Positions 4,482-34,730 of a stretch of 64,000 nt of DNA are shown here, in pieces (position 1 is the first letter of the stretch; every line of letters begins with the position of its first letter). The translations under genes were made by a program, and so were the position numbers. Source of the stretch: Nemertoderma westbladi (Eukaryota > Animalia > Xenacoelomorpha). The stretch is from positions 90,270 through 154,269 of the forward strand of contig JAUCBJ010005512.1 in assembly GCA_032718475.1 (NCBI GenBank), in the 5' to 3' direction. The notes under the pieces were generated by a model. The model was given only the letters and a program-made list of their open reading frames with translations. It searched no databases and was not told the DNA's origin.

Positions 4482-5417
4482 CTGTTTAATTCTCTAAAAT
4501 CAAATAAGTGAAAATAAAGTTATACATATAACTTTAGGTCAATACAGAGATGGCACACTCAGCCATGCTTATAAAGAGCACCACAAAGTGATTAAGTAAA
4601 ATACAGTATGGCTATAATTAAAACACAAGGAGAACATATGATACTTAAAAATATATTAAATCGGAAAAGCTACCTACAGTACAGTATGTACTTGTACAGT
4701 ACAGTACAAGCGATGCAGTTTATTAGTAGAATCGTCACTAGCTACTCAATGAGGTGGCCATAGGACATCATACATATGGAATCCTTCCAGTTCCCTTTAC
4801 AATGATCAAGTAAGTTAATATTATTGATTGCCTTGCGGAATGTTGGTAAACTGGGGCACCGCAAATAAGTCGTCGCAGACTATTTGCGACTTCCGCAATA
4901 ATATGCGAGTTACAGTACTTGGGCCACGTTTCCTATAACCAACCACTCAACCAGTAACACGCAGTCTGTAGATGTTTGTCTTATATTTTTAAACATTAGG
5001 ATTTTTTTGTCTATAACAATAAGGATCAGTCTGAGCTCAATAGCTAGTCAGTCATTCATTACAGCATTACACATTACTGCATTACCTGTAGGGGTTAATC
5101 AGTCTGTCTGCAGGCTGCTGGTCTGTAGTCAGGTAGTTTACAGCACAGGCAACCTGCACTGCGACTGCCTGACTGCAGGAGTACTGGAACTGGAACTGGA
5201 GTAAAACTGCAGTAGCATAGCAGTAGGCCTACTGCTACTGCAGTAGTCCCTATACTGCTATACAGCTATAGTTCCTGCAGTCCTAGTCCATGTGTGTGTT
5301 ATCCCTACAGCACAGTCCCTATCTGCCTATGCTGCGCTGCTATATGCCATCATTGCAGCATTCATCAGTTGATTGCATTGCCGCGTCGTTCCCGTAGCGC
5401 CGTAGGCTTATCAGCTT

Positions 5418-6773
5418 ATGGTTATGGAAAATTATTCGCAAAACCTACCCGAAACCAACCCGATTTATACCCAATACAGAGGCGGGATCAATCCCGGTAG
5501 AGCTCCCTGTGATACGAACTCGATGGATCCAGGAGGGCTAACACCAGCCCAGTTAGCGCATCGAGAGAAACAACAAAGTATTCTTAACGAAATGAAACAA
5601 ATGTTATTCCCTAGCAACCCGGTTTCTTCTGGGGAATACCTTTATGTTAATTCTCAGCAAACTGAAATATATACCGGTACTGGGAACTTTATGAATCCCC
5701 ACTACCCGGCGCCAGCGACAGGAAATCCCACCAATCATAATTTAGGCTTAGCTAATTCTGGTGTAAATCCCTGTCGTTTCGATAATCTAACAGTCTACGA
5801 AGATAACGGTCGATTCCATAATTATAATTCCTCGGCCCCGTTGCGCAATGACTGTAGGCCCACCGATCATTCTTCTAGAAGAAACCCGTCTTACCATAAC
5901 GAAAACTTCAACCGTGAATTCGGCCAAACGCCGGCCGATTTACACCAACAAATTGGCTATACTAACGGCTACCGGGAAGTCACGAGCCATCCACCACGCC
6001 GCGTTCGCGAGAGTTGGAATCCCGCAACTAATAAACCGAGCTCCCTCCAACTACTCGGTCAGATGTGTCGCGATACATCGTACACGGACGCAACCCCACT
6101 GCCGCCCACCGCTGCACCACAACCCACCGCTGCACCGCAACCCACCGCTGCGTCGGTAACCAACCCTTATCATCACCAGTACACACAGAATCACCACCGG
6201 GACTTCCATATCCATCCGCAATACGGTGGTACTAACGGTTGTCAGGATAACCAGATGGTTTTTAACGAATTCCCTTCTGACGTTTTTCCGGGAATTTTCG
6301 GTGAATCTGAAACTGATTGGAATTACAACGACTGCGAAAATTTTGACGATTTCTCTTGGTGCGAGCAAATCGCCGATATAATATCCTCGCCTGGTAGGGA
6401 AGAGACGTCCAGTCGCAACGAGTCATTCTACGCGGTGCCACAACAGTGGCAACAGCAGCGCGTAGTCCCACCCCCGCCACATACAGCGCCACCCTCCACC
6501 GAGCAGTGGCGCCCTGAGCGGCCCAAACAATGGCGGCAATGTGTGGCGCCGTCGAATACTGTGGCGCCGCCCGGGGAGCAGAGGTGGCGTTCTTCTGGGA
6601 GGCCGCAGCCCGAGCAGTGGCGCAGCCAACCCGAGCAGTGGCGCGCCCAACCCGAGCAGTGGCGCACCGGACGCCAACCCGAACTCCCCAACCCCCTAGA
6701 GACGCTGCAGACCCTGGCTATTCTCGCCTCCGGCGGTAGGAATCCGCCAAAAAGTAATTTAGGAAAAATTTAA
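5418..6773 (+). CDS. Intronless 451-aa low-complexity protein with N-terminal BCL9/Legless HD2-like beta-catenin-binding motif and C-terminal (E/Q)QWR repeats
   Basis: Long, GC-richer ORF within AT-rich flanks. Residues 40-66 GLTPAQLAHREKQQSILNEMKQMLFPS align without gaps to BCL9 HD2 as recalled (GLSQEQLEHRERSLQTLRDIQRMLFPD). No other BCL9 domain was recognised, so no gene symbol is given. Confidence 0.65.
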   Translation: MVMENYSQNLPETNPIYTQYRGGINPGRAPCDTNSMDPGGLTPAQLAHREKQQSILNEMKQMLFPSNPVSSGEYLYVNSQQTEIYTGTGNFMNPHYPAPATGNPTNHNLGLANSGVNPCRFDNLTVYEDNGRFHNYNSSAPLRNDCRPTDHSSRRNPSYHNENFNREFGQTPADLHQQIGYTNGYREVTSHPPRRVRESWNPATNKPSSLQLLGQMCRDTSYTDATPLPPTAAPQPTAAPQPTAASVTNPYHHQYTQNHHRDFHIHPQYGGTNGCQDNQMVFNEFPSDVFPGIFGESETDWNYNDCENFDDFSWCEQIADIISSPGREETSSRNESFYAVPQQWQQQRVVPPPPHTAPPSTEQWRPERPKQWRQCVAPSNTVAPPGEQRWRSSGRPQPEQWRSQPEQWRAQPEQWRTGRQPELPNPLETLQTLAILASGGRNPPKSNLGKI

Positions 6774-10007: not shown

Positions 10008-10417
10008 ATTATTTTGTTTTAAACTGGCTAGACTATCCTTCGACGACTTCATCCATACACACCTGCTGCATAATGTACGAGTGTACCTAAACTGTAACAG
10101 GCCAAGAAACTATTGTTTAAACCGGATCAGTCTCTTCGGGAATTTGAATTGAATGTTTATTTATTTTTACCCATTTTATACATATATAATATATACGAAA
10201 TTAATTCACACCTTATATAATATAATACATAGGTAAAGGAAGGTAGCCAATGGGATTGCTAGTGAACTGTTGCCCACCGAAGGGGCATACTGTAGTAGGT
10301 AGATTAGGAGAGGGTTCGATTGGTTAGGAAGCTATGCGCAGGTTAGGATAGAGCAGGGTAGGTTAGGATAGTACGGTGGCCCATAAGTGACAGCCATACA
10401 ACATTTATAAAACAATA

Positions 10418-10781
10418 TTAACATTTAGGTTATCAACATTAACATTTAGGTTATCAACATTAACATTTAGATTATCAACATTAACATTTAGGTTATCAAA
10501 ATTAACATTTAGGTTATCAACATTAACATTTATGTTATCAACATTAACATTTAGATTATCAACATTAACATTAAGGTTATCAACATTAACATTTAGGTTA
10601 TCAACATTAACATTTAGGTTATCAACATTAACATTTAGGTTATCAACATTAACATTTAGGTTATCAACATTAACATTTAGGTTATCAACATTAACATTTA
10701 GGTTATCAACATTAACATTTAGGTTATCAACATTAACATTTAGGTTATCAACATTAACATTTAGGTTATCAACATTAACAT
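10418..10781 (+). repeat. Subterminal 21-bp tandem array (acattaacatttaggttatca)n, left arm of the IS3EU inverted repeat
   Basis: About 17 direct units are visible; mirrored at 13762-14058. Confidence 0.95.
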
Positions 10782-11068
10782 ATAGTACCGATAGGCCTAT
10801 ATATTATTCGTTACAGAAAACTGAAACAACAGGAACTTACAGTACCGGTATATGATTCGCCGCAAATTACACACCATTTACCCTACCGGTATCAACATTT
10901 TAGTACCGGTACATTATTTGATACTGAAAACTGAAACAACAGGAACTTACAGCACCGGTACCGGTATCTATCGAACCCTAGACTAGATACTAGTATGGAA
11001 TTTTGAAATACATACAGTAGGCCTGTGTAGCTCTTAAAATTTGAATAAATCTGGACTTACAAAATACA

Positions 11069-12064
11069 ATGTACTGCCATATATGTGGAAATATAATCGA
11101 AGGCGAACACACTAAATACTGTCACAATTGTGGGAGTGCATTGTCTCATTCAATTATGCATATAGATGAGAATGATTTTTTGCAAACTGAAACTCTCACT
11201 GGTGTCTGTACCAGCACCAGCACTCCTGTTGTTAACCGCAGTGGTAGTGATAAGATTAATCGGAAACGTACCATTCTTTCATTTGATGAATACATAAGTT
11301 CTAAAGGGAAACAATGGAAAGAACGAGTACCCGGTGGGATTGGTGGCTCAAGCCCTGGCAATCGGGCAGGATCTAGTGATGTATCAATCGGGATTGGAAT
11401 GATATATTGGAACGACGTCGATGGCAAATTCAAGGTTCGACGCGGTAAGAGGCTAGCACTATCAGTTAATGAAACGGATAAGTATAATGATTTGTTGAAT
11501 AAGGCCTTAAATAAGTGGAAGGCATATTGTCCTGATTGTTATGATGAACATATGTCTTATTGTTTAACTTTTGAAAATGGCATTACTGCAGAATTTCTCC
11601 CAGGTAGTAAGGAGATTTTTAATTTAAAGATATATAAGGAAAATGTCGGAAAACAGTACAGCCGGATCACCCTGTATTTATGTAGCCAAGATGATAGGGA
11701 AGATTTTGAAGGGATTCAAATAAGAGAGTCTGTGGTTGAGTCTGTGAGCGATACGCAACAGGTAAATGAACAAGTATGTGAGAATAATAGGCCTACTGAT
11801 TTTGAAAACACAACATTAGCACAAGATAATCCCGTAATCGAATCAGTTTCCAGCAAGGGACTGGTCACAACATTGGGACAACAAGATAATCCTATTATGC
11901 TTGGTTACTTAGATGAAGATTTCCCATTGCAGTATTTGTGTGAAATTAAACCATGGAAATATGATAATATTACAAGTTTTATTGATTCTCTATCTAACTC
12001 AGTTAATCAGGAAGTTCAATTCGAAGGAAGTTCAAGAGAAACGATTGTCAGAACTAGCCCTTAG
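11069..12064 (+). CDS. IS3EU accessory ORF (N-terminal zinc ribbon), 3' end displaced by a hAT fragment
   Basis: CHICG...YCHNCG zinc ribbon and a conserved-looking LPG....F.L..YK...GK.YSRITLYLC block; lies inside the TIRs. Confidence 0.65.
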   Translation: MYCHICGNIIEGEHTKYCHNCGSALSHSIMHIDENDFLQTETLTGVCTSTSTPVVNRSGSDKINRKRTILSFDEYISSKGKQWKERVPGGIGGSSPGNRAGSSDVSIGIGMIYWNDVDGKFKVRRGKRLALSVNETDKYNDLLNKALNKWKAYCPDCYDEHMSYCLTFENGITAEFLPGSKEIFNLKIYKENVGKQYSRITLYLCSQDDREDFEGIQIRESVVESVSDTQQVNEQVCENNRPTDFENTTLAQDNPVIESVSSKGLVTTLGQQDNPIMLGYLDEDFPLQYLCEIKPWKYDNITSFIDSLSNSVNQEVQFEGSSRETIVRTSP

Positions 12065-12268
12065 TATAGAGTCAGAAACATTAGATAGCTTAGAATTAGA
12101 TGTAGTAATTACCGAATTTGCTTCACTTAAAACACAAGAATAAAAATCATTAAATTTGCAACTTTCTTATTTTGTGTAATTTTTGTTAGGGGGGGGGGGG
12201 GGGGGGGGGGGGGGTGGCGCTCCCAGTGGGCCTTGCCCCCGGGCGCAAAAAACCTAGCTCCGCCCCTG
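12030..12268 (+). mobile_element. 3' end fragment of a hAT DNA transposon
   Basis: Encodes QEKRLSELALSIESETLDSLELDVVITEFASLK, like a hAT C-terminal dimerisation tail. Ends in cctagctccgcccctg, the reverse complement of a CAGGGGCGGAGCTAGG hAT-type TIR. Confidence 0.7.
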
Positions 12269-12543
12269 CCCCCCCCCCCTCATATCTCCCGTCTCTGAAA
12301 TAATATTATGTTGTAACCCGGGCAACGTCAGGCTCGTAGTGTAGCTACTACTGTACAATATAAAACAATACTACTGTACTGTATGTACAACGCATCTCTT
12401 AATATTGTAGTACAAATTGTACTGTAGTACAAATTTGAATTTGATGAACGATTATAGCAATTGGTTTCCTACAGTGTATGAGTATGTTACTATGTGAGTT
12501 TGGGGGAGCAGTCTTTTATGCAATTCACTTGTTCATTCGTGAT

Positions 12544-13670
12544 TCACTGCCCCTGTTCCGCCACGTGCATTAGAGTTTCATAGTTCGTAAGGGCGGTTCC
12601 TACATCAGATGAGAATGGCAGTTGTTTGATAGTAAATACCATGGATAAATAGTCCTGATAGATATTTCTATACTGTGGCACTATGATATGGTCCATTAAA
12701 GAATTTAAATCATGAACCGAGATCTCTGAATTGAAACATCTTCTGAAAGATAGTACAAACAATCCGGACGTCCATTTACTCTACTATACTGGGACTTTCT
12801 TATTAGGTGTGTGTTCCACTGTTCTTTCACGAGATTGAGTTCGTCCTGAATTATCCCAGAAAAACAGTACCATAAGCACTCTTTTGCTAGTGGGGAACTC
12901 AAGTCTATGACACCGCGTGCTTCTAGATCACCGAAAAAATTCCGCCACCACAATGATCGTGTTTTCGAAAACTGAGACCACCAGGCCTCGATACGCTGAT
13001 TATGCTGGGAGGAAACATAACGGTGAGCGTTTATATTTTGATGTAGAAAGGCTTGAATAGAAGCAGCGATACAGTTTTCTGTACCGAGATCGCTAATTAG
13101 TTTTTGGGGATAACCTAAGTTTCTAATGGTGTTGAGAAACAAAGAAGCAATGTTATCGGGGCAGTTATTTGAACGGATCACATTTAACCAAAGTATCTTG
13201 CGGCTATAACCATCAATACAGCCGTGAATAGGGAATCCCCAGGGTTTGAGCTTGTCGTACCCATCTATATGCCAAGTATAGTTGGGTCCTCGACTGTAAT
13301 ATACCCTTCTTTTGAGTTTGTGGCGTTTACGTAGTTCAGTCCCATCAGGGTCAATCTCTTTTAGAAGTTTCTGTACTAACAGACGTGGAACAACTACTCC
13401 CTGTAAACGAAGCGCGTGCCAAACAGTGCGGTATCCTGCAAGACTCCCTGGTCCTTCAATTACATTCTTTATTCTCTCACGAATTGCCTCTTCAGAGATC
13501 AGATGCAGATGATTATTTCCTCTACGTCTATATAAACCATAATGTAGTAGGCGCCTTAGCAATGTCCTAATACTCAAATTTAAACCGAAAGCGTGTAAAA
13601 ATGTTACAATTTCTTTATACGAAAATCCACAATTAAAATAATGAGTGATAAGTTCCTCTTCAGATGCCAT
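12544..13670 (-). CDS. IS3EU DDE transposase (integrase core); ORF 12705-13670 plus a probable frameshifted C-terminus to 12544
   Basis: WHIDGYDKLKPWGFPIHGCIDGYSRKILWL, SDLGTEN and NQRIEAWW supply D-D-E, with an HTH-like N-terminus. The overlapping ORF 12544-12762 looks like the continuation. Confidence 0.85.
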
Positions 13671-13761
13671 ATTACTCTGTGCCGGTACCTAATGTAATGG
13701 GGGTGTAGGTTGAATAAATGCAAAGTTGATAATAAGGAATAAATGAATAATGAATATAATA

Positions 13762-14058
13762 ATGTTGATATCTAAATTTTAATGTTGATAACATAAATGT
13801 TAATGTTGATAACCTAAATGTTAATGTTGATAACATAAATGTTAATGTTGATAACCTAAATGTTAATGTTGATAACCTAAATGTTAATGTTGATAACATA
13901 AATGTTAATGTTGATAACCTAAATGTTAATGTTGATAACCTAAATGTTAATGTTGATAACCTAAATGTTAATGTTGATAACCTAAATGTTAATGTTGATA
14001 ACTAAATGTTAATGTTGATAACCTAAATGTTAATGTTGATAACCTAAATGTTAATGTT
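13762..14058 (-). repeat. Subterminal 21-bp tandem array, right arm of the IS3EU inverted repeat
   Basis: (tgataacctaaatgttaatgt)n, the reverse complement of the left array. Confidence 0.95.
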
Positions 14059-14124
14059 GTTTTATAAATGTTGTATGGCTGTCACTTATGGGCCACCGTA
14101 GGATAGGGAGTAACACACGATATA

Positions 14125-16728
14125 ATAGGATAGGATAGGATAGGATAGGATAGGATAGGATAGGATAGGATAGGATAGGATAGGATAGGATAGGATAGGA
14201 TAGGATAGGATAGGATAGGATAGGATAGGATAGGATAGGATAGGATAGGATAGGATAGGATAGGATAGGATAGGATAGGATAGGATAGGATAGGATAGGA
14301 TAGGATAGGATAGGATAGGATAGGATAGGATAGGATAGGATAGGATAGGATAGGATAGGATAGGATAGGATAGGATAGGATAGGATAGGATAGGATAGGA
14401 TAGGATAGGATAGGGTAGGGTAGGGTAGGATAGGATAGGATAGGATAGGATAGGATAGGATAGGATAGGATAGGATAGGATAGGATAGGATAGGATAGGA
14501 TAGGATAGGATAGGATAGGATAGGATAGGATAGGATAGGATAGGATAGGATAGGATAGGATAGGATAGGATAGGATAGGATAGGATAGGATAGGATAGGA
14601 TAGGATAGGATAGGATAGGATAGGATAGGATAGGATAGGATAGGATAGGATAGGATAGGATAGGATAGGATAGGATAGGATAGGATAGGATAGGATAGGA
14701 TAGGATAGGATAGGATAGGATAGGATAGGATAGGATAGGATAGGATAGGATAGGATAGGATAGGATAGGATAGGATAGGATAGGATAGGATAGGATAGGA
14801 TAGGATAGGATAGGATAGGATAGGATAGGATAGGATAGGATAGGATAGGATAGGATAGGATAGGATAGGATAGGATAGGATAGGATAGGATAGGATAGGA
14901 TAGGATAGGATAGGATAGGATAGGATAGGATAGGATAGGATAGGATAGGATAGGATAGGATAGGATAGGATAGGATAGGATAGGATAGGATAGGATAGGA
15001 TAGGATAGGATAGGATAGGATAGGATAGGATAGGATAGGATAGGATAGGATAGGATAGGATAGGATAGGATAGGATAGGATAGGATAGGATAGGATAGGA
15101 TAGGATAGGATAGGATAGGATAGGATAGGATAGGATAGGATAGGATAGGATAGGATAGGATAGGATAGGATAGGATAGGATAGGATAGGATAGGATAGGA
15201 TAGGATAGGATAGGATAGGATAGGATAGGATAGGATAGGATAGGATAGGATAGGATAGGATAGGATAGGATAGGATAGGATAGGATAGGATAGGATAGGA
15301 TAGGATAGGATAGGATAGGATAGGATAGGATAGGATAGGATAGGATAGGATAGGATAGGATAGGATAGGATAGGATAGGATAGGATAGGATAGGATAGGA
15401 TAGGATAGGATAGGATAGGATAGGATAGGATAGGATAGGATAGGATAGGATAGGATAGGATAGGATAGGATAGGATAGGATAGGATAGGATAGGATAGGA
15501 TAGGATAGGATAGGATAGGATAGGATAGGATAGGATAGGATAGGATAGGATAGGATAGGATAGGATAGGATAGGATAGGATAGGATAGGATAGGATAGGA
15601 TAGGATAGGATAGGATAGGATAGGATAGGATAGGATAGGATAGGATAGGATAGGATAGGATAGGATAGGATAGGATAGGATAGGATAGGATAGGATAGGA
15701 TAGGATAGGATAGGATAGGATAGGATAGGATAGGATAGGATAGGATAGGATAGGATAGGATAGGATAGGATAGGATAGGATAGGATAGGATAGGATAGGA
15801 TAGGATAGGATAGGATAGGATAGGATAGGATAGGATAGGATAGGATAGGATAGGATAGGATAGGATAGGATAGGATAGGATAGGATAGGATAGGATAGGA
15901 TAGGATAGGATAGGATAGGATAGGATAGGATAGGATAGGATAGGATAGGATAGGATAGGATAGGATAGGATAGGATAGGATAGGATAGGATAGGATAGGA
16001 TAGGATAGGATAGGATAGGATAGGATAGGATAGGATAGGATAGGATAGGATAGGATAGGATAGGATAGGATAGGATAGGATAGGATAGGATAGGATAGGA
16101 TAGGATAGGATAGGATAGGATAGGATAGGATAGGATAGGATAGGATAGGATAGGATAGGATAGGATAGGATAGGATAGGATAGGATAGGATAGGATAGGA
16201 TAGGATAGGATAGGATAGGATAGGATAGGATAGGATAGGATAGGATAGGATAGGATAGGATAGGATAGGATAGGATAGGATAGGATAGGATAGGATAGGA
16301 TAGGATAGGATAGGATAGGATAGGATAGGATAGGATAGGATAGGATAGGATAGGATAGGATAGGATAGGATAGGATAGGATAGGATAGGATAGGATAGGA
16401 TAGGATAGGATAGGATAGGATAGGATAGGATAGGATAGGATAGGATAGGATAGGATAGGATAGGATAGGATAGGATAGGATAGGATAGGATAGGATAGGA
16501 TAGGATAGGATAGGATAGGATAGGATAGGATAGGATAGGATAGGATAGGATAGGATAGGATAGGATAGGATAGGATAGGATAGGATAGGATAGGATAGGA
16601 TAGGATAGGATAGGATAGGATAGGATAGGATAGGATAGGATAGGATAGGATAGGATAGGATAGGATAGGATAGGATAGGATAGGATAGGATAGGATAGGA
16701 TAGGATAGGATAGGATAGGATAGGATAG
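14125..16728 (+). repeat. (GGATA)n pentanucleotide microsatellite, ~2.6 kb
   Basis: Nearly perfect; the only interruption seen is three TAGGG units at 14411-14425. Confidence 0.99.
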
Positions 16729-16931
16729 TACAGTATAAAAGCGCAGACTGCTATTTTTTCATCATTATTTGTTATATTAATTCTTTGGCATTAGGCCTAT
16801 TTGTTATATTAATTATTATCAATGCAACAATTTACATCATTATTTATTTGTGTTTTATAATTTTATTTATATTAAGTATTTTTATGTACCATAAACTTTA
16901 TTAAAGCATTTACTAGGGGGATAATTTCTAT

Positions 16932-17042
16932 TGACCCCGCGCCCGTGTAGATTGAATAAAGGCCCACAAGGAGTGAGCGTGACCCCGCGCCCGGGTAGAT
17001 TTAATAAAGGCCCACAAGGAGTGAGCGTGACCCCGCGCCCGG
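16932..17042 (+). repeat. 48-bp satellite, left part (split by BEL-A)
   Basis: Unit gtagatttaataaaggcccacaaggagtgagcgtgaccccgcgcccgg, ~2.3 copies; continues in register at 49554. Confidence 0.93.
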
Positions 17043-18126
17043 TGTAAAAGCTTTTGCGGACATAACAAGTCATTTTTCCGCAATGCGCAGAATACTCTAA
17101 AATAGCCCTAAATTTGTCCAACTACGCGACGGGAAGGGATTGGAGCTGGTGTGACGAAATCTATCAGCTGATTCTTTGTGGATGTGGAATTTTTCTTTGT
17201 TCTGCCTCATTCAGCCAATCAGAGTAATTTTCCCTTTATGTCTAACAGAGGCCTACGGAAACTCGCGCAATGCATTACGGTCTTTGTTTACCTTTTTCTG
17301 AGCCTCAGAACCAGCTCGGAATTCTCTGTGCTTCTGTGAGGAAGTTTCAGACTTTAGCATAGGGACATCAGATGGCTTTGATTATAAGAACGTAAACCTA
17401 TTACCATATCATATCGCACCAACTTACCCAATGCATTACGTAACACATACTGACTGTTCACCGCATTATTTTACTTCTGTTTACGGTCTGTTATTAATTG
17501 TTGTTATATTAATGGATATTGCTGTTATATTTGGAGAATACCGATAAATAATCATAAAACCCCCAATCTTCTTGATTACTGAAGGTAAGAGGAACAGGTT
17601 TACCGGTAGCAACTGCGACTTACATTATATTGGTTTTGTGTGAGCTAAATGCTATTTCATAATCCCTACATGTGTCAGTTGTGACCCTCCTTATATATGA
17701 TCAAATTCAGTGACGGTCGGCAGATTAGTGTGAAGTAGTGTGAAGGTAATAAAGCATCTCCTAAAGAATGCGCTATTTACGAAACTCTGTGGCCATCTAG
17801 TTGTGATTAGTATAAGTCATAACTCTTTTTTATACTTAAAGCACCACGCCCCAAAGGAACTGTTAATATTTCCCCGAAAGTACAGTAAATATATTTGTCA
17901 GAGATAGTAACGATCAATCGAATAATACAGTAGGTCTACACTGCAATAATTTCAAGGCATCCGAATCCAGTCTCCCAAAACCGTGGGTGATAGGTCGCGC
18001 ACGGACTGGCTTCGGCTGATGTAACTTCAGTACATTAGGTAATTGTTAAATGCTAAAGTCGATTTATAAATAAGAGGACAACTAAAATTGGCAGGTTAAA
18101 CTGCTAAAGGTCTAAAAGCGCGAACA
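17043..18126 (+). repeat. BEL-A 5' LTR
   Basis: tgtaaaagcttttgcggac...aaaagcgcgaaca; matches 48599-49548. Confidence 0.95.
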
Positions 18127-18137
18127 GTAATAGATTT
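18127..18137 (+). promoter_or_regulatory. BEL-A PBS position: non-tRNA, complementary to an 11-mer in its own LTR
   Basis: gtaatagattt is the reverse complement of aaatctattac (48949-48959, exact; the 5' LTR copy 17394-17404 has 1 mismatch). No TGG start. Confidence 0.7.
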
Positions 18138-20022
18138 CAAGTTTCTTTATTGCGCCGTAGGCAATAAAGGCGAATGTACCGGTCGGACGGTAAACTGTAG
18201 GCCTAACTGCCCAACCACCCGAACCGGTACTTACAGGTACAGCAGTATTATTCGTTGTGATAATTATATACCGGTAGGTCTTGATATTTAATCGGGACTG
18301 CAGCCCTGGTTTTTATTGAGATTTTACTTATTTCTGTCAGTTTTATTTATCTGTAAGTGTAATATTGAGCAGAAGGCATGTAAGCCTGCTCAGATTGTAT
18401 AAATAATTTGTAGGCCGGATTGTTGTCTAACAGTTGTTAGGTCTGAGGAGATTGCAGTATGTGTAGAGTGTCTGTCCGATAAAGTGCTAGTTAGGAAGGT
18501 GGGGGCATCCAGTGCTGTAAGGTAAATCCCCCCCCCCCCCCCCGAAAGAATAAGTCGTACTACTTGGTTAGAACGCCTACTAACTAACCATTTCGGAGTC
18601 TGTATATACTGTAGTTTATTTAGGCTTGACAGTAGTCTGCCAGCATTTGGTCTGTATTTTATTTGAATAGTCTGCACGGGTAGCGTAATATTTATTATTC
18701 AGAGTCTATGCGAGTATTCGCAACCTCCAATTCCCCAAGTTTATTCCTACAGTAATTGTGCTTGTTATACATACCGTTATAGTTAAATTAACCCCGGTAC
18801 TACATCAGGGCTGCTTGGCGTAGGTAAAGACTGATGATTTTGTGCTCTGGTCACTCCAGCAGATACCGTGGTTCTTTTGGCTGTTCAAGTATATTTAACT
18901 GCTGGTTATTTGTTGTATAAGTACTTGTACCTAATTTAGGGTTTAGAGTACAGTGCTTTCCGAAAGTAATTTAGTGTGTGGGCAGTATATTTGTGTTATA
19001 ACGTGGTTAATAGGCACGTTAGCTCTGGTTGGCTTCGGTAATTAACCTCTAGGTAAGGAGACTCCGGGTACATAATGTAGTACTTATAGAGCTAAGACTA
19101 TAAGTCGTCAGACAGTGGTATTTCCTTATCTGGACAACGCAACTTACTTACTACTACTTTATTGTTTTCAAATACCGTAGTTTCCTGTCAGTTTGTAAGA
19201 ACCAGAAATTCTAACTCCTTGTTAGGCTGGTTTGTAGATTTCTTGTAAAATTACCCTAACAAATTGTACGTGTAACTTGTTATTGTTTATTTAAAGATTG
19301 TAATCTCAACCTGTTTGTAATTGTAAGTAATTGTAAGTAATTTGTAGTGATAAGTAACTTAGTAAAGTAGAATTATCTGTATTAGTGTCCAACAAGTACC
19401 ACTCCACTGAGAGCGTTCAGCTTCTGTGTAGTGACTCCTTATCCAGAAATAATAACATTTATTTCAAATATTGTCAAAACCCCTTGTACGGGTATATATA
19501 TATTTATAAATCAACTCAAACAGATTTATAAAATAGTAGGCCTGTCATACATCAAATAGGTCTTAATATCAGTTGAACTACTGCTTAATATCAGTAATAA
19601 AGTAAAGGGAAGTAACCCTAAAATTCAGAAATTCAGTTATTATTAAATAATTGACATTACCAGTATTTACGGTAAGCTTATTATATTTATTTATATAAAT
19701 TTAGGCTGAAATTATATACCGGTATTCTGTGACTAATCCTAGTCTGTAATAATACTTATATATATACTATAAGTGGGTTTAAGTGGGTTTATAAGTGGCT
19801 TTATTATTTTTAAACCAGACTGATCATAATTATATTGCCATGTAAATTTTGAATTTTTTAACTATACTATAAGTGTATACCGGTATTTTAATATTATATA
19901 TATATCACGTTACACTGAGTAACGGTATCGGTAATTAATTACTAGGCTTACAGTTGATACTGAATTACTAGACTTGCTTTAACTGTCGTTATAGTAGTAG
20001 GCATTCAGCTGTAAAATAAATC

Positions 20023-23000
20023 ATGGCTAACACAAAACAAACACTGTCAGATAGTCTCCTAGAAAGAACAATCTGTGACTCAGATAAGAGTATAGAACAT
20101 CTGAGACCAAAGTCCAAGTCCCCTCCTACTGTAAGAAAGGTCATCCCTACAGTAGTAGTATCAGACCCTAGGCTAGTAAAGCACCATAGGTCTATTATAG
20201 GCACTAGGGCTCAAGTTAAGCGGGACCAAGAGGCAGCTGTTAAACAGCAGCAGCACCCGAGCCGAGAACTTATTTCTCAATGGCAGGATAACTCTAGTAG
20301 TTCAGACACTGAAGAGTTGACGCCCGAGATCGGAGCAAGGATGGCAGAAGCGGTTTATCCAGATCCACTTCTAATTCTTCCTGGGACACTAGAGATCCAG
20401 CTGTATGGAAGAGGTCGGCAGCAGGATATGTCCAGGGATTCTTCAGCTCTTTAGAGCGATTAGAAGAACACTTATTTGAACAACGCCAAGGACCTCAAGA
20501 GCAGGGAGAGCTGCTTTATCAAGTGCAAGAACGAATTTTATGGATCAGACTAATCCTTTCAGCCTTTGAGGAAGCCTCGAAGAGAAGCCAAGACACGTCG
20601 TTGCAAGTGGCCGTAAAGACTTGGTTCCAACGGGTGAGTCTTAAAGTCCAGGGAACGACACAATGGAAAGTTCAGCTAACGGAGCGCATGACCCACGGAG
20701 AATCAACAGACGCTACCTTTTCTCAGGTGGAAGGCGAAGCTACATCCGAAAAACCTCAGAAGAAGGATGCTACGGACATCTATCTGTCGGACTATCAACG
20801 ATTTATAGGTGACAAAGAGCTAAGGAGACGGCTAGCTGGACTTCACCCTAATAGTGAGGGAGCCAAACTCGTTAGATGCGGAAATATTAGCCGCGGAGCA
20901 GGCTAAATTTGATGAAAGCATCCTCATCGCTATGGAACAGGAAGAACAAATAAAGAAACGGCAAATAGAAGACCAAAAGTTGGCAGCAGCGGCAGAAGCT
21001 GAAAGAAAGGCGGCGGAAGCTGAAAGAAAAGCGGCAGTGGCAGAAGCAGAACGGAAGGCATCTGAAGCGACTACCCAACTAGAGCTGGAGAACCTTCAGG
21101 CGAAACAAGATTACTTGAATAAACAAAGGACAGCTACTCAGATGCAACTACCGAGTCGATCTACTCCCAGAAGACAGGGATTTACCTCCTCCGATGAGGG
21201 TGATACAACAGATCCCGAGGGGAAAGGTAATAAATCTCATTCAAGCGGACGTAGAAGAACGCCACGCCGTCAGAAGTTACCTAATTTACCTCCTGCGGTG
21301 AGAAGGCAACTAGCTAATCTAGACTTAAGTAATCAAGAACCTACAGACCAAATTATTAGAGTAGAAAGACTCCCTACTATAGTAGATGAGCCTGAAATAA
21401 TTAGGCCTGTCATTGAAGCCACTCCGGTGATAGAGACCCCTGTACTTCCAGAACCTAACTCTAAATTCCCTTTGCACAGTACTAAACTACATGTGCCCAG
21501 TAGACAAGCCCCAGAACCACATTCAGTCCTGGATGCCGAGCAAGACATAAATGACTCGTCTCCCGTCGCCCCTACGTGTCACCCCGCTACCATGTTGGCG
21601 GCTCCCGCTTCGGCGGTTGAGTGGGTGGACGAGGGACGGCGGGGGATGAATCAGTTGCTCGGGCAGCTGGAGGACCATAAGAACAGGTCTTTCCAGCAGG
21701 TCCGAGAATTGGAAGGGACTGTTCAGCAGTTAAAGGGAACAGTAAGAGAGAGTAGGTTAGAGTTGCAAGAAGTACAACAAAGTATCGCTTTAGAGCGAGA
21801 TAAATTAGTAAATATACAAATGGGTATACCACCACCCCCTGTAACAATGTGTCAGCCCGTTAGGTCTGAAGTATTTCATGGGCAAGGTGTGGAGCCTACA
21901 CGCATCTATACTGCTAGTGAAGTAGAAACTCCTATAGTAAACCCTATTAAGGGTAATTATAAACCCGTTGATAATGATATCCCATACAGATCTGATCATA
22001 ATCCGAGAAATTTATATACCGATAACTCGATATTAAATAATACGATGGCTCAAGAAAGTTTTATACATCAAATGGCTAGAACCGAAGCTTGTCAAGCGGT
22101 AAAGGTGGGAGAGGTCGTCAAGTTCAATGGAGATGAGATGAAATGGTTACCTTTTAATGAATATTATAAAGATAACATACAGAACTCTGTACTATCCAAT
22201 GGAGAGAAACTTAGATTCCTCATCGAGTGCCTGGAAGGACCTCCCAAATTAAAGGCGTTAAAGTTTATTGGACATCCAGATGGATTAAGACAAGTTTGGG
22301 ATACACTAAACATAAGGTATGGTAATAGGACTAACATAGCTAGGTATTTATATGCGAAATTATTAGCGCCCCGAAAGTTTCTTAGCAGTGGGATTATAGA
22401 GTTTTCCGATGAGATTCAGGAGATCTGTAGACAGCTAGATTGGTTAGGTAAGTCTCAAGAATACCAGAGTTCTATGGTTGTTGGAGCCGTAGCATCTACT
22501 TTACCAAAGGGTGGAGTAGGTACGCATTGGGACAAAAAGGTTCTCTATATGATGGACCAGCAACAAAGAGACCCTACCATGGCTGATCTCATGTCATTCT
22601 TAAATGGAGAGGTAAGATTACAGCTCCTAAAGCAGTCCAGAGAGAAGACACCGGAAAGTAAGGTGAGTGAAAAACCCGTTTCTAGAAGAAAGGTAACACC
22701 AGTGTGTTATACGGACGATGGCGAAAGCCAAACCTTATACGAGGAGAACAGCGGTAAGGACATCGAAAGATCGTATTATGTCAATAAAATAAGGAAAGAC
22801 GTAAGTAAATCTAAGTCTCGAACCAGTGACAGGAGAGAACAGGTAACAACTCCTCCTACGTCTCCTAAGAGAATTCATGGAAGAAAGCCCGAGGAAAGAA
22901 CCAGTGTGCACAACACAACACAGGTTAAAGTAAGTAACATCAAACCCAAGTGTGCATTGTGCGATGGGCCACATCGCTTGAGTGAGTGTGATGAATTCTT

Positions 23001-26000
23001 GAAGAAATCCCTGAAGGATAGACGTGATGTCATGTGGGATAAGCGGTTGTGTTATAATTGCCTCAGACGAGGACATCAACGACGGACCTGTTACTCAGAC
23101 GCAAGGTGTGCTAAGTGCGGTGCGAAACATCACATCTTGCTGCACGCAGAATTTGACAGAACCCGCACGAGTCAGGTAAGTGAGCCCGAACTACATGTCC
23201 AATTCAGTGATGTGAACGACGCTGACCACAGTTCTGAGATGGAAGGATTCTACACGGACGAATTCTCCGACGAAAATGAATCCTGTTATATGATAAACAC
23301 CGCTGTGTATCTAGCACTTACGTACGAGACTGAATCGGAAGCGGAAAATCCTTGACTGACTATTCCGGACCGACAACCATCTTGGAAAACAACCAACTTC
23401 CTCCGTCGGTATCCGAGAATTCCCTGTGGTGCAACTGAGAGTCCATGGGCTAGGTAAGAGCCTCATAGTAAACGCCCTCCTTGACTCCGGCAGCATAGGC
23501 ACCTTCATTGACAAAGAACTAGCTGAAGACATCTTTGCTGGACAACCCAAGTTCTGAACTCAGTTGAACCTTTCCGGAATTATGCAGGTTTGGAAATCCA
23601 CAGTAGCTACAGATTACTACGTGGGTGCGTTGTCCACTCCCCAGGATGAACTAGGAGAACATAGTGTAAGGTCGGTCAAAATGGTGGCTATAAAGAACTT
23701 TGCTACTAGCCAAGTGGAGCCTTACAACTGGGATGAAGACCATTTTACCCAGCAACATAATATTCCTAGATTCAACACTGATTACCCAGGGGTGCAGATC
23801 TTAATTGGCCAAAATGCGCACGAAGTGCTTGAGACATTAGAAAAACGGCCTGCTCGACCGCAACCATTGCAGACGTACGCGGGAAGAACGAGAGTAGGTT
23901 GATACTTCACTGGACCTTCCCGTAGAACCCTAATGGAAAGACTCCCTAAGGAAAGAATACATCAGGTGAGTGAATGGGAAGAAGAAATCAGTAAGGGAGA
24001 AACCACCACTGAGGGAACCCCATACTCCTCAGATAATGACGACATTAATCAACTGTATGATGAGGAAAATGTCCTAGACATCCTCACTTAGAACCAAACT
24101 TGGTTAAACCAAGCCAACCTATGCCATCTTATCAATCAACATGGCGGACAATACACATATAATGACGAATTAAACGAAGTGATAGATCGATACAATAACA
24201 AAATCCGTGATGAACACGCCGTACGATTCTTTACTCAAGAAGCCGTAGAGCCTAATTCCTACGACAAAGCCTTGTCTGTCGAGGAAGAGAGAGCCAAGCA
24301 GATTCAGGAAACGACTACACGTTATCTGAAGGACGAAGGTCGCTATGAGATTGGTCTTCCGTTCCGACGGCGAGAACCCAGCTTTATAAATAACCGACCT
24401 TTAGCGGAAAAGAGAATCGCACAACTACATCGGCATCTTACGGCCAATGTTCAAGCCAGGGAAATGTATAAAACCCAGCTGAAGAAATTCATTGATAAAG
24501 GATACGCAGAGCGAGTTCCGGAAGAAACACCCATAACGGAGAGAACATATTATCTAACACATCATTACGTTCCCAAGCCTGGTAAACCCAACAAAGTCCG
24601 GGTAGTGTTTGACGGCTCCGCCCTTTACATGGGTCAATCCCTGAACTCAGAACTGTTGCCGGGACCCAACTTACTCCAATCCTTGTTGGGAATATTATTA
24701 AGACTGCGGCAATATTCTATCGCATTCGCTTCGGACATAGAAGGCATGTTCTTACAAGTCAAGGTGCTGGATAGGGATTGAGACAGCCTACGATTTATGT
24801 GGTGGCCTGAAGGAGACCTCAACCGAAAACCGGTGGAGTACTGGATGACCATCCAGGCTTTCGGGATAATCTCGAGCCCCTCGAACGCTTGTTCAGTAGT
24901 GCGTACAACTGCCGATGACAACCGAGACGCCTTTTCTAAAGCGGTTATCGACAACATCAAACGGGATATATACATGGACGACAATTTAAAGTCCCTCCCA
25001 TCGGTGGAAGAGGCCATTGATGTTGCCAAGGGAACGGTAGAGTGCTTGCAACGTGGTGGATTTCGACTAACCAAATTCACTAGTAACTCCCGTGAGTTTC
25101 TGGAATTGATCCCGGTAGAAGACCGAGGACCGAGGTGTTAAAGATCTGGACCTCATCAAGGACGATCTTCTGGAAACCAAAACGCTTGGCTTAAAAAGGG
25201 ACACGGAGAGAGATATCTTGTTTTTCCAGTTAAAACAGCGAGATAATCCAGTTAGAACTAAACGGATTTGTCTAAGTATCCTGAGCACTTATTTCGATCC
25301 ATTGGGATTTATTAGCCCAGTTATATTAGTTGCTCGGAGCTTAGTGCAACAAATGTGGCTCGAAAACCACTCGTGGGATGATCCACTTAAGGGAGAACTA
25401 CTAAAGAAGTGGACGAAATGGGAAGATTCTCTACCATCCATCAAGAACTTTAAGATTTCCCGTTCATATTTTGGTCACGTTCTCCCCACGTATTCCTATC
25501 AACTCCATGTGTTTCGAGACGCCAGCGATATGGGAATAGGTATAGTAGCCTACCTGAGGGTTGAAACTCCGGATGGAATTAAAGTTGCCTTGGTTACCTC
25601 TAAGGCCTTGATAAACAACAAATTAGAAAAAAACAAAAAGTTCCTCGAGCGGAGTTAAAGGCGGCTCTATACGCTACAGCCATCGGCTGGAATGTAACAG
25701 AACAGATCGACTATCCACTGGAGAAACTGTCTATTGGACTGATGCTTTACTCGTTCTGGAGTATATAACCAATGAAGTCTGTCAGTTCAGCATCTTCGTT
25801 ACCAACAGAGTAGCCATTATACTCAGTCGCTCTAATGTAGATCAATGGAGACATTGCCCTGGGACGATCAATCCAGCCGACATCGCCTCCAGAGGAGCAA
25901 CTCCTCAAGAACTGATAGATACTCCAGACTGGTTAGGTGGACCCATCTTCCTAAGTAAAGAAGAGGATGAATGGCCTCCTCATCTCACCACGGCGGAGAT

Positions 26001-27834
26001 TAGACAAGCCAAGGGAGCGGAGAAAGTCAAACCTAAAACCCGGACGAGTAAATCAAAGTTATTTAAACCCGTGATAGATCTGTCTGTACTACACACCTCC
26101 GGGGACGACGCCGTAGATCTAAACTCCCCCACCACGAACAAATCTGTTATAGAAATCAGAGAAAGAGACTGGAAATCTGGAACACCAGATGTCTCGCAAG
26201 GACTCTCCCCTCTTCTGAGAGAGCAATAAATCATTATAGCTCCTGGAATCGGCTTTGTAAGGCCGTTGTGTATCTTAAAAGATGTTTCCATCATCACTAT
26301 TCCAGGACGAAGATCGCTAGTGATACCGCTCCAATAATATCCGAAAAGGTCCATGCTATTAAAGACCTTCCCGCTTATAAAGTGTCTGATAGGTTTCTGA
26401 ATGAGAAGATCAGTTACCAAGAGCATGAGGATACCAATAAGCAGATACTGAGACTCCTGCAATGCTACGAAGATTCCAATAAGTATTTCCTGTTGTTGAG
26501 AAATCCGCAGATGCGCTTAAGGGATCGTTTCTCTAGCACAATGATGGATGGGTTAATACGTGTCGGAGGGATAAAACTAAATTTCCCATACTCATTAGAA
26601 ATCTTGAAACACAAATCAAGATGATTGTAGATGTTCACAGTAGGCTTTACCATGCTGGTAGAGAACGAGTTCTTAGCGAAATTCGAACTCGCTATTATTT
26701 CCATGAGCCCCGTAGAGCTCTGAACCAAGTTCTTAGGAACTGTATACCCTGTAGGAAAGCATTCAGTAGGCCTTTAACACAGCGAGAGGCAGAATTACCT
26801 AGGGAACGAGTAAGCTTCTATGAACCACCCTTTACTAATACTGGTGTGGATTTATTTGGCCCTATTGAAGTATATCGTGCTAGGACTATAGTCAAGCGAT
26901 GGTGTGTAATCTTTGTCTGTATGACCCATCTAGATATGGTGAACGATCTATCTACCAACAGCTTCATACTGAGTTTACGCCGACAGATCGCTCGTTTTGG
27001 AACTAGCAACACTATGAGATCCGACAAAGGAACGAACTTCATTGGCGCCAATAATGAGATCAAAGCTTACATGAAAGGTTGGAACCAAAGACAGGTGGAC
27101 GATCAGCTAAGGATAACGGCATCTAGCTGGACCTTCACGCCGCCGATGCCCCTTGGTGGGGAGGAAGTTGGGAGAGATTAGTACGGAGCGTGAAGACCGC
27201 ATTTCACTTTATAGTGCCGTGCCGCGCGTATCTCACCGATGAACCTTTGCGGACGTTAATGGAAGAAATCGCCGCCTATCTTAATGAGAGACCGCTTATG
27301 CCAGTCTCATCGAGTCCCGACTCCCTAGAAGCGCTAACACCCGCGCATTTCCTACTGAAGAAACCTGTAGCCATGCTCCCTCAATCGGAAATCACGGACG
27401 GAGACGAATACTGCCGACAAACTTGGCAACTTATGCAGTTACTATCCCGTCGTTTTGCTGACCATTTCAAAAAACATTATCTTCCTACGCTACAACTTCG
27501 AACAAAGTGGTTTGCGCAGCAAGAAAACGTCAGCGCCGGAGACATGGTCCTTATTGTGGAATCAGATCTTCCATGTAAGAGGTGGCAGACAGGTCGTATC
27601 ATCGAGACTCATATATCCGATGATGGTTTAGTGCGATCGGTAGAACTCGTCGTCATGCGACATAACTTTAAGAAACCTGGAATTGTATTCGAAACACAAC
27701 AACTTAATCGCCCAGTTGGTCGTTTATGTTTACTGGAACGAGACCGAGAGTTATCCGGAAACTATGGAAGGCAAGATACTCTTCCCACGACCACCTCCCT
27801 AATCCAACAAACATCTAGGGACTCCCCAACGTAA
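20023..27834 (+). pseudogene. BEL-A gag-pol polyprotein, multiple stops and frameshifts
   Basis: Gag (VKFNGDEMKWLPF; knuckles CALC..H, CYNC...GH...C, CAKC..HH.LLH), protease LLDSGS, RT (KVRVVFDGS, SDIEGMFLQV, YMDD), Pao RNase H (FDPLG, DAS, NPADIASRG), integrase (GVDLFGP, SDKGTNF). Confidence 0.93.
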
Positions 27835-31595: not shown

Positions 31596-33540
31596 TTATC
31601 GCTTAGTTGATCGAGCCCTGCCGCGTCCTCGAAAACTGCGCACAGGTGACTTTGCTCGCGATATGGGACTCGTGGAGCGAGTCACTGGTTTACTTGGGAC
31701 GTTGAGAGACGGTGCGACTATTTCCTCGCAAATTCGTCTATTTGGCATCCCAAAACCCCGACCGATTCCTCGTGACCGATCAGTTGTCACTACAGTTGGT
31801 AGAACGTCTGGGAACGCGCGAAAAGCGGACGACGCAGACCCAAGAGTAGCTTGCGCCCCCTGTTGATCAGCTGGTGTATGTCCCGATCCTCCTACTGGTT
31901 CTCTTGGAAGCGATACCGTATCCCGAGTAACTCGAATGGTCGGCTCAACTCCCTTGCGTTCTTCTACATTAATAATTTTCTTTAATTGTTGGCCCACCTT
32001 TTGGACCCGTATGATCCTACCCTGCCCGTCCTCCCGAGGGTGACGTGCAGACGGCGCAACCGGAGTGGCTGGTATATTTGTCGCCTCTAGGACCTCTTCT
32101 TCCTCGAATACGCTCGCTCGTATACGTTTATGGTAAAACGCGGCTCGGTACGCCCATGCGACGGTTAACCAAGCTCCTTTATTCCGTTTTTCAGTTCGGA
32201 AACGATCGAATTCACCATATGTAATGCGGTTAACGACTTTCTGAAAATTCCACGTGTTTTTGTTATCCGGGTGAATCTGTAGTAGATACTCGCGCACTAC
32301 TCGGAATCCACTGTCGTGGGGCAAAATATCGACAACCTCGATAAGTTCGTCATATTGGGGCATAGCGGAGATGTATCCTTCCGACATCATCGTTTGAGGA
32401 TTTACCGCCCAAAATCCGAGATGCGCTCTCATCGGAAACCGTCTTCTTTGTGCCGATACATGTTCGTCGGCTAAATCTTCCCACTCATCAAATAATTTCC
32501 TCACGAGTTTTACAGATTCGTGTTCATAAGGTATGTCTCTTAGTTGGCATTCAGATGCTCGATGTCCTTTTATATTGCAATAAGTACATTGAGCCATAAA
32601 TCTCCAGCAAGTATAAAAGGTATGAGACCCTTGATCCCCACACCATCCACAGATTAGCTGAGTCGTAGTAATGTGCTTTCCACTGCACTTTGTCATATGA
32701 TGTCCAGCGACGCCACATTTACTACACATCGTATTGGCAGGGTACCACACTCGTTCGTATATAAGATCTCCAATCGGTCGAGCGCTTCCTCCCACACTAT
32801 AATCGTAATCATCTGGGTCTATGGGTTGGTAGGTTTCTGAAGGTTGTATACAAACTATAGCATCTGTTGCTTCAAGTTGTCGAATCTCCGTCTGAGATTT
32901 CTTCGGGAGGTTCCTTTCTATCTCAAGAAGTTCCTCTAAAGGATCGTCAGTGATCGTAGTAGTTACTTCGAAATCATCACCGAGGTGACCGATAGGCGCG
33001 CGCGTCTGCCGTGATTCTTCCGTAATCTCCACGATACGTTCTCCTTCATAGGGTAACAATGTAAACATAGATGGTCTTTCGATAAGAGATCCCGCATTGA
33101 TAATAAAGTTTATAAACTGAAAATGCTTCCTTGGTTTCTCTATCGTCCCCTCGAGTTCGTCTGTAAAGATGCATTCCATCAAATTCATCTCTTACCGCAG
33201 GCATAGGTTCGTGCGCCTTTAGGTATTGCATGGTATGATACAAACGACTAATTTCAGTATCGGGGTCCTCGCTAATATCTCCCGTATCACACAAGGCGTC
33301 GTACGGGTAAAGTTCGTTGAAGGTTTTGCGCAAACTTTCGATTCTTTCGTTTAATGCATTTTGTCTTCTCTTTAATACGTTCGAGTCATATTTAGTTCTC
33401 GCGAGTTTCGCTGTACTTTCCGATAATTCCTTTATACCGAATATAGTGTAGTCCTTGGCTCCAAATCTTTCGAATGGCGCTGCTGCCTCCTCTTGGATAT
33501 CATATCCCCATCTCGGCTCTCCTTGTATCCCTTTCTCCAT
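31596..33540 (-). CDS. BEL-B accessory ORF after pol (two overlapping frames 33046-33540 and 31596-33188; probably one frameshifted gene) with three CCHC zinc knuckles
   Basis: CSKCGVAGHHMTKC, CGWCGDQGSHTFYTC, CTYCNIKGHRASEC. The N-terminal part is homologous to the BEL-A accessory ORF. No signal peptide or TM segment evident. Confidence 0.75.
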
Positions 33541-34202
33541 AATTAGGGGTGTAGTTACATAATCATTACTACTAGAGGGAATACAACAGAGTTTGTAGTT
33601 AGTTATGAGGAGACGTGAGAGTTTCGTCTGCCCTTTGGGCTCGACAACGCTCTAACCTCCTACCCATAGCCTAAGATCTAGGGTTTCTTTAATGACACGC
33701 TGCTTCTTATCTAAAATTTTTTGCCGAAATAAAAACGAATTTGGGCTAAACTGGCTGTGAGTCTAAAATACTCACTTTTTGATCCCAAACTATTATCAGA
33801 AAATAAGCAATCAAGAATTAGTAATAAATATAGGGGAGTCTATTTTGACGTAACTTATTGAAACAAGACCGTGTAAAATTTAATTAAAAAATTTTTAAGA
33901 AAGGCTCGCAAGTCTTCCTCTCTTGTTTCTCTAATTTTAAGTTCCACCCGACTGTACCCTGAAATCTATTCACTGGAGAAAATTTTAAAAATTTTTCAAA
34001 TCCAAATGGATTGTCTAAATTTTCGAAAATGTCTCAATATTGTGAGTTCCAAGTAGAATTCCATTTCTTATACCTACAAATCCCGCTCCTATGTGACACA
34101 TAAGGGTACTACCCTCAACGTTCACATATAAAGACAATGGAATTCTACCGCTGTCCTTACTACGGTGTACAGGTACGTGGAAATCTATTTGTAAACTCCT
34201 AA

Positions 34203-34730
34203 TTATTTACTAGTATTAGGTGGAGATTTGTAGTCTCCAGACTCGTTACGAGTCTCTTCAAGAAGTACGAGACGTTGAGTCGGTCTGTTAACTGTACGAC
34301 CGTCAATTGTCCGTACCGTCACAGTTCTTGTCACTCCATCCATAGATGGATGTGTGGCTAAAATTACACCTGTTATCCAGAAGCGTCTTTTTAGATTCAC
34401 TTCCGCTAACAGCACGTGATCTCCCGGCTTTAATGCGTGGGTGTTATTGTACCAAGTTGTTCTGGCAGAAATAGAGGGCAAATAATGGTTTTGCCATATT
34501 TCCCAGAAATTGTTAGCCAGTAGTTGCGTGATTTTCCACGCCTTTCTACCGTAGCTGTCGCTTTCTATTGGAATAGAAATCGGCGTCAAAGTGGTCGGTG
34601 CCTGCATTAGCAGGTGTGCCGGTGTCAAAGCAAACTGAGATTGTTTGTCATCGGGTACTAATACTATTGGTCTAGTATTTAGTATTGCCTCGATTTCAAC
34701 AAACAATGTTGTCAGTTGGTCGTCTGTCAA
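34203..34730 (-). CDS. BEL-B integrase C-terminal part (frameshifted continuation of pol)
   Basis: LTTLFVEIEAILNTRP..LTPAHLL..FWEIWQNHYLP..GDHVL..DGVTRTV..RPTQRLVLLE, the Pao integrase C-terminus. Confidence 0.9.
   Translation of the reverse strand: MTDDQLTTLFVEIEAILNTRPIVLVPDDKQSQFALTPAHLLMQAPTTLTPISIPIESDSYGRKAWKITQLLANNFWEIWQNHYLPSISARTTWYNNTHALKPGDHVLLAEVNLKRRFWITGVILATHPSMDGVTRTVTVRTIDGRTVNRPTQRLVLLEETRNESGDYKSPPNTSK

Follow-up and report, generated by a model that had tools for sequence, protein, structure and literature searches.

Candidate self-encoded primers for reverse transcription in BEL/Pao retrotransposons of Nemertoderma westbladi

The 11 nt that lie flush with the 5' LTR's end are, in all three BEL/Pao elements found in a 64,000 nucleotide stretch of Nemertoderma westbladi DNA (the window), the reverse complement of an 11-mer within the element's own LTR. 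This complementarity, its flush register, the mirroring of changes between site and LTR in two related elements and the conservation of the arrangement across the clade form the established part of our account. Judged from sequence, it is highly probable that the primer in this BEL/Pao lineage is encoded by the element itself and independent of tRNA, all self-encoded modes being taken together. As to the mode, we favour with somewhat better than even confidence one in which the 5' copy of the LTR 11-mer lies inside a longer RNA, would be freed by a single cut just 3' of it and would then prime reverse transcription.

Self-comparison of the 64 kb window and Pfam searches identified elements A and C on the forward strand and element B on the reverse strand, nested inside A. 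The 5' LTR of A (17043-18126, forward) is 1084 nt long with TG..CA ends; it pairs with a 3' LTR at 48599-49548 (forward) at 927 identical positions in 945 aligned columns, plus 144 gap columns, and the flanking 5-mers CCCGG and CACGG match at 4/5 positions as a target site duplication (TSD). Between the LTRs gag-pol lies in pieces (20836-27834, forward), interrupted by frameshifts and stops, with DUF1759, an RT with YMDD at about 24971, Peptidase_A17, an integrase zinc finger, DUF5641 and partial RNase H motifs. B has a 5' LTR of 1923 nt (45777-43855, reverse) and a 3' LTR at 30655-28732 (reverse), identical at 1918/1923 positions, with the TSD TTATG; its gag-pol (34203-43042, reverse) holds a 2767 aa open frame with a YVDD RT and what we take to be RNase H motifs, the integrase end sitting in a different frame. 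C runs from a 5' LTR at 50828-51980 with TG..CA ends to a 3' LTR at 62267-63435 (both forward; 1146/1151 identical) and is flanked by the TSD ACCCT, but is without the RT region owing to an internal deletion. The TSD is exact for both B and C. A polypurine tract abuts the 3' LTR with zero gap in A (48591-48598, forward, read from the sequence), in B, where it lies directly upstream, and in C. The LTRs of B end in TA..TA instead of TG..CA (45777, 43855, 30655, 28732), with an exact 5-bp TSD.

The Gag-PR-RT-RNase H-IN order, the Pao-specific domains DUF1759, Peptidase_A17 and DUF5641, the paired LTRs, the short TSDs and the polypurine tracts are those of BEL/Pao elements. PF05380 is present in the listed protein homologues, at 33-44% identity. 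Those assigned to a mussel, to sea urchins, to a hemichordate or to corals are about 40-44% identical and, like a BCL9 domain match elsewhere in the window, indicate that the host is an animal. No chromodomain was matched in the elements by Pfam, which sets them apart from the chromovirus polyprotein of the Ty3/gypsy Tf1/sushi group. The LTRs of B share no DNA similarity with those of A and C. A quick RT tree of 90 rows, built without reference elements of the named BEL/Pao lineages (BEL, Pao, Tas, Suzu, Sinbad, Sparrow, Surcouf, Dan and Flow), places A and B as sisters (SH-aLRT 99) on long branches, and the window elements form a long separate branch. The ICTV Belpaoviridae profile, which describes replication as poorly understood, lists LTRs, a purine tract, the same gene order and Pao-specific Pfam domains, all shared by the window elements, as well as an 18-nt primer site matched to a tRNA of the host (tRNA-Arg or tRNA-Gly), which they lack (PMC8742986). 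We take this site to be a descriptive trait and not a ground for classification. B, 17 kb long overall and with an LTR of 1.9 kb, is in both respects larger than the ranges given there. By protein sequence, then, the elements are BEL/Pao, and they differ from this profile in their predicted priming.

The primer-binding site of A, GTAATAGATTT (18127-18137, forward), directly follows the LTR with no TGG, as the initial annotation had read it. Also as read there, its exact complement lies in the 3' LTR at 48949-48959 (forward), and the 5' copy, the candidate primer (17394-17404, forward), carries one mismatch, which our analysis places at 17397. The site of C, ATAACAGTTAT (51981-51991, forward), is flush with the LTR end and is matched exactly in both LTRs (51245-51255 and 62702-62712, forward), while that of B, GTAGGAATGTG (43854-43844, reverse), is flush with the LTR end, is followed by a UACG-loop hairpin and is matched exactly at LTR position 883 in both copies (44895-44885 and 29773-29763, reverse). 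The self-match claimed for all three elements is therefore present, and exact in 5/6 LTR copies, the 5' LTR of A being the sole mismatch copy; each match is exactly 11 nt long and starts flush at the LTR end. Just after the primer site A has a 9 bp leader hairpin (18145-18169, forward) that is kept in C with a variable loop. TGG, expected of an 18-nt host-tRNA site, follows the 5' LTR in none of A, B and C, and none of the splice junctions tried for the three improves the match. ARAGORN called no tRNA genes in the window, and Rfam at E up to 1 over 16800-64000 returned two weak matches below threshold and no ribozyme.

Non-cognate LTRs within the window match the sites over at most 7 nt at offset 0. 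A first-order model predicts 9.0e-4 (A), 9.5e-4 (C) and 4.2e-4 (B) exact matches at offset 0, or 3e-3 to 4e-3 per element with offsets 0-4 allowed, and shuffled sequences gave matches in 8 (A), 12 (C) and 3 (B) of 3000 cases; A and C are related, so these estimates are not independent draws. The initial annotation's verdict of a low chance holds, though its figure of a few 1e-4 is replaced by a slightly higher one of 4e-4 to 1e-3.

Covariation between primer and site is expected where the primer rewrites the site in every cycle, as in retroviral plus-strand synthesis. The 11-mers of A and C occupy the same aligned place in the LTR, and the two primer sites differ at 4/11 positions, every change being mirrored in the LTR 11-mer (7/11 identity on both sides). 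In the ungapped alignment the matching positions of these changes alone have a chance of 1/330; a gapped alignment of the sites can be made too and is also mirrored. Mirrored changes of this kind are what such rewriting would leave behind, so they speak for a primer and for more than a structural role alone.

The initial annotation had suggested searching related BEL elements for covariation, found here as four mirrored changes between A and C, and for complementarity between site and LTR, which also proved positive. The B polyprotein was aligned with 24 homologues, leading to 78 metagenome loci (the best 80 of 514 being the ones confirmed). Seven loci were too short, and among these best 80 of 514 a terminal repeat was found in 33/71. 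The LTR end could be fixed by the divergence of the two copies in 14 loci, and L028 and L032 belong to one family, which leaves 13 families; the LTR ends of L020 and L058 were moved back 1-2 nt by eye. All 13/13 families with a defined LTR end, drawn from the best 80 of 514, have a self-match of 10-15 nt, and in 9/13 of them it exists only across a GT-AG splice junction within the LTR.

Our first filter allowed any GT(A/G)...(C/T)AG intron and a gap of 0-6 nt, and found matches of 11-15 nt across a junction in 8 families, of 10-12 nt without an intron in 4, and of only 7 nt in L050; the donor was GTAAGT in 6/8 spliced matches though any GT(A/G) donor was permitted. With a different, fixed splice filter the match of L050 grew to 10 nt, spanning a junction, and that of L067 shrank to 6 nt. 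Under this filter at least 10 nt were matched in 15/16 cognate pairs, the three of the window included, against 5/240 swapped pairs, two of the five having one site in common, while controls at the same length gave 1/16 in antisense and 0/16 in each of two shifted search intervals. TGG lies inside the first 8 nt of the site in 1/16. A blind scan of the other 64 loci, run with no control and with sites required to start with GT, AT or AG, gave matches in 22, from which 12 were kept, 5 set aside as repeats of counted families and 5 dropped because the LTR was unverifiable. The resulting 28 elements have 25 different primer sites and match lengths of 10-15 nt (11 nt in 16/28), and the duplex ends in AC or AT in 15/16 unbiased cases. 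Spliced and uninterrupted forms are interspersed in the quick tree, where shuffles were as low in 81 and 58 of 500 cases. A scan of viral contigs found no relative. Given the long separate branch of the window elements, what the relatives reveal would apply to them by extension.

In L007, L016, L026, L030, L032 and L045 the primer site is spaced from the LTR (0-4 nt) by roughly as much as the LTR is from the purine tract; both spacings are zero in the window elements. The paired lengths suggest lineage-specific end trimming by integrase.

Pairing beyond the 11-mer gives information on the RNA in which it lies. Across the 28 elements, pairing of the 35-nt segment upstream of the 11-mer with the 35-nt segment that follows the site is stronger in cognate (-14.4 kcal/mol) than in swapped combinations (-11.4 kcal/mol; permutation p = 5e-5; 3.5e-4 for the 13 LTR-defined elements alone and 4e-4 for the other subset), and segments 35, 70 and 105 nt farther up have no effect. 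A short adjacent helix following a small bulge is found in 13/28 cognate combinations against 60/756; in B, 7-8 extra bp are possible upstream of the 11-mer past a 4-nt bulge. A and C, without the adjacent helix, rank 26 of 28 each. They share a predicted helix with U5, whose 5' arm in A (17350-17360, forward) lies upstream of the 11-mer and is conserved in C, and whose 3' arm (18050-18060, forward) lies 66-76 nt before the primer site; 10 bp (17350-17359 with 18051-18060) are common to A and C, with one compensatory pair. The commonest unphased contig variants, among the 40 of 437 rows listed, keep the pairing (17359 C with 18051 G; G/T wobble at 17356). This helix could instead form with the 3' copy of U3. 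Evidence from B and the relatives indicates that the 11-mer is probably inside a longer RNA and not at the transcript start; in A and C a start upstream of the 11-mer or at it would both fit the sequence.

The mechanism we favour would then run as follows. Transcription would start upstream of the 11-mer, and the upstream part would assist by pairing with the leader in B and most relatives or with U5 in A and C. Once the 11-mer had paired with the primer site, a nuclease, by analogy with Tf1 either the element's RNase H or one of the host, would cut after the A-C or A-U that closes the duplex and leave a 3'-OH opposite the last U5 base. Minus-strand DNA would copy U5 back to the cut and then jump to the 3' repeat, and plus-strand copying of the primer would rewrite the primer site, so that both stay in step. 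Many relatives would possess the 11-mer only once the LTR intron had been spliced out, while in the window elements it is uninterrupted. Priming in cis or from a co-packaged copy would be compatible with this scheme. In its broadest form, to which we give an even chance, a wide branch of animal BEL/Pao would have exchanged tRNA priming for a third route, a primer that is self-encoded, internal and released by a single cut behind A-C or A-U; in most families it would be assembled by host splicing of an LTR intron, so that only the spliced, cap-proximal copy primes, and the window would hold the uninterrupted form.

At the cut predicted for A, between 17404 and 17405, the sequence changes character. 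A hypervariable patch (17405-17455, forward) directly 3' of the 11-mer is identical between A and C at 13/51 positions, against 35/49 upstream and 194/245 downstream. In four DNA runs from three studies, the best run possibly being the sample of the window itself, family contigs align over 17365-17404 and diverge beyond it. Their depth in X1 drops from some 45,000 to some 1,000, and loose ends lie at 17403-17405. Divergence after the 11-mer fits an error-prone template end as well as an unconstrained loop and is no proof of a cut. Pairing of the sequence after the cut with the U5 end is weak (-8.4 vs -7.8 kcal/mol), and a shortage of G beyond the cut, which inspection had led us to expect, did not appear (G 0.19 vs 0.20-0.22).

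Tf1-like self-priming, as the initial annotation proposed it, contains two claims that fare differently. Self-encoded, tRNA-independent priming in BEL/Pao is upheld by the relatives and the covariation, while a transcript start at the 11-mer finds weaker support, several observations in B and the relatives speaking against it. In Tf1 the mRNA's initial 11 bases are the primer and are cut off by RNase H, according to the part of the source used here (PMC7175516). The strict equivalent, in which the 11-mer forms the very 5' end of the transcript, loops back to the site and is cut off between nt 11 and 12, is possible but distinctly unlikely. It would account for the commonest match length of 11, as in Tf1; indeed a near-fixed length of 11 nt (16/28) is what a 5'-terminal primer would give and so weighs against an internal position. 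The flush position of the primer site, and likewise of the purine tract, next to the LTRs suits it too. In A and C the bases at -1/+1 are T-A, in keeping with a start at the 11-mer; CCAAT lies at -179/-167, and upstream of the 11-mer there is a conserved block of 29 nt, a possible core promoter. Folding models give the B duplex a probability of 0.95-0.98 only if the RNA starts at the 11-mer; in A (mismatched 5' copy) and C the 11-bp duplex has near-zero probability from every start point, so that its formation would require a chaperone or a special fold.

Against such a start stand the pairing of the upstream sequence with the leader and the lack of an initiator bias, pyrimidine-purine at the putative +1 occurring in 7/28 elements where the background is 0.24, with TATA at about -31 in only 1/28. 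Spliced relatives would require first exons of 4-7 nt. The 11-mer of B begins with C, and a full promoter-like set lies about 440 nt upstream in its 5' LTR (reverse strand), comprising TATA at 45367 (-472), an Inr-like TCATTC at 45337 (-442) and three CCAAT boxes. An AATAAA follows 118 nt past that putative start, upstream of the 11-mer, with a later signal at +261. If the AATAAA is the poly(A) signal, a cut in cis leaves no overlap for strand transfer, and its position is unexplained unless the +261 signal is used or priming occurs in trans.

A second alternative, which we regard as improbable, makes the 3' LTR copy, or else a separate LTR transcript, the origin of the primer: near its 3' end the RNA would be cut or would terminate after the 11-mer, and that end would prime at the primer site. 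The exact match of A is indeed in its 3' LTR, although the single mismatch of the 5' copy is also expected from decay after insertion. Because U3 is present at the 3' end of the RNA, upstream pairing would need no assumption on the start site, and the promoter and poly(A) layout of B would be explained. However, A, B and C have no poly(A) signal 10-30 nt before the end of the 11-mer, and the spliced relatives keep the intron in both LTRs, which would be easier with a cap-proximal spliced primer and an unspliced 3' template.

We consider it very improbable that priming falls to a host RNA, be it a tRNA, a tRNA half or another small RNA, with the LTR pairing serving only as a regulatory structure that hides or presents the site. 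Host tRNA-Arg or tRNA-Gly is the primer named for BEL/Pao by the ICTV profile (PMC8742986), and tRNA halves prime some Copia elements, as described in part of PMC10886601; moreover, the 11-mers end in 7 nt that look like an anticodon loop (U-rich, then A, then a pyrimidine). Yet TGG is missing from the window elements and rare in the relatives, the 25 different sites in 28 elements are each matched by the element's own LTR, no anticodon-like stem surrounds the cut (1/28, the same as in swapped combinations), and both the AC/AT end and the flush register are more in keeping with a primer end than with a passive structure. Mimicry of an anticodon arm at the cut, tried as a candidate in its own right, was rejected, with at least 4 of 5 stem pairs in 1/28, the same as swapped. 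A chance match, for which the shortness and AT-richness of the words and the nearly palindromic site of C might speak, has a negligible probability, being refuted by the swapped-pair control (15/16 vs 5/240), the mirrored changes and the splice-site-exact matches in relatives.

Several further features of the elements and their surroundings were observed. The LTR of A has a splice-donor-like site at 17586 and the leader an acceptor-like site at 18326-18340, both also present in C; splicing between them could give an RNA with the 11-mer but without the primer site. In the U3 of B there is a tRNA-like Pol III unit at 45650-45564 (reverse), copied in the 3' LTR at about 30530-30440, which ARAGORN does not call and which does not match the B primer site. 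It has what are presumably an A box, a B box and a T run. The unit resembles those of Helenus TRIMs, as far as these are treated in the portion of PMC10886601 drawn on, but sits in an autonomous-type BEL/Pao element. Extra ORFs without a Pfam match follow the integrase in B (31596-33651, reverse) and A (46375-48520, forward), with a copy in C at about 60600-62190; the 531-aa extra frame of B has Cys/His zinc-knuckle-like motifs, and both the B and A ORFs end in basic, Arg/Lys-rich tails. A role for them in primer handling is conceivable. A and C both sit in tandem arrays of 48-bp and 32-bp units (16932-17042, 49549-50827, 63436-63916), which may reflect a target preference. Elsewhere in the window, an integrase-core ORF (rva_4, HTH_21; 12705-13688, reverse) lies between inverted arrays of a 21-bp unit, and the whole (10372-14106) is possibly a DNA transposon with array-like terminal repeats; a long ATAGG satellite occupies 14100-16730, and a host ORF with a BCL9 domain match lies at 5406-6773.

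Known self-priming elements offer the closest comparison. Tf1, Tf2 and Tj1 of Schizosaccharomyces and the Tf1/sushi group likewise have no tRNA site and an 11-nt site adjacent to the LTR that is complementary to their own LTR RNA, as set out in sections of PMC7175516, PMC4600332 and PMC5341516. The window elements thus share with this group a primer site that can pair with some 11 nt of the element's own LTR, although Tf1/sushi elements are Ty3/gypsy chromoviruses, of another superfamily, and the BEL/Pao elements of the window are not members. Self-priming has likewise been predicted from complementarity between site and LTR for Tcn1 (Ty3/gypsy) and, in plants, for TAR, Houba as well as Osr-1 (Ty1/copia); the plant candidates belong to Gypsy and Copia lineages, and the part of the source consulted includes no BEL/Pao element and no splice-junction primer (PMC6317226). 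Other LTR elements also lack a tRNA site, among them fungal GalEa Copia elements, which have a conserved hairpin site, Dictyostelium Skipper and bivalve TRIMs, but in the relevant excerpts of the sources no complementary LTR segment was found for these, whereas the window elements and relatives have one in every defined case (PMC5445492, PMC5006619, PMC6934838). For BEL/Pao, term searches of two surveys gave no match for primer, PBS or tRNA (PMC3118150, PMC6238403) and in a third matched only PCR primers (PMC554778), and nothing on BEL self-priming appears in the corresponding portions of PMC13524379, PMC10886601 and PMC3286476. The initial annotation knew of no description of tRNA-independent priming in BEL/Pao. 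Our search, made partly on excerpts and with subscription papers, Repbase/GyDB entries, primary Tf1 papers and supplements outside its scope, likewise turned up no mention of self-priming, or of priming across a splice junction, in this superfamily. An element-encoded primer was reportedly once proposed for a Cer element of C. elegans, which the literature search did not confirm. Self-priming as proposed here is a form apart from the known ones, in a superfamily where no description was found.

BEL/Pao priming is listed as dependent on host tRNA; if these elements do make their own primer, self-priming would have arisen independently once more, in animals. Such a primer would free the elements from tRNA supply and from control by tRNA fragments, and would explain why many BEL/Pao elements are left without a primer site in tRNA-based annotation. 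The position of the cut is predicted to the exact base. An internal and often splice-built primer would, if true, couple the initiation of reverse transcription to RNA processing by the host.
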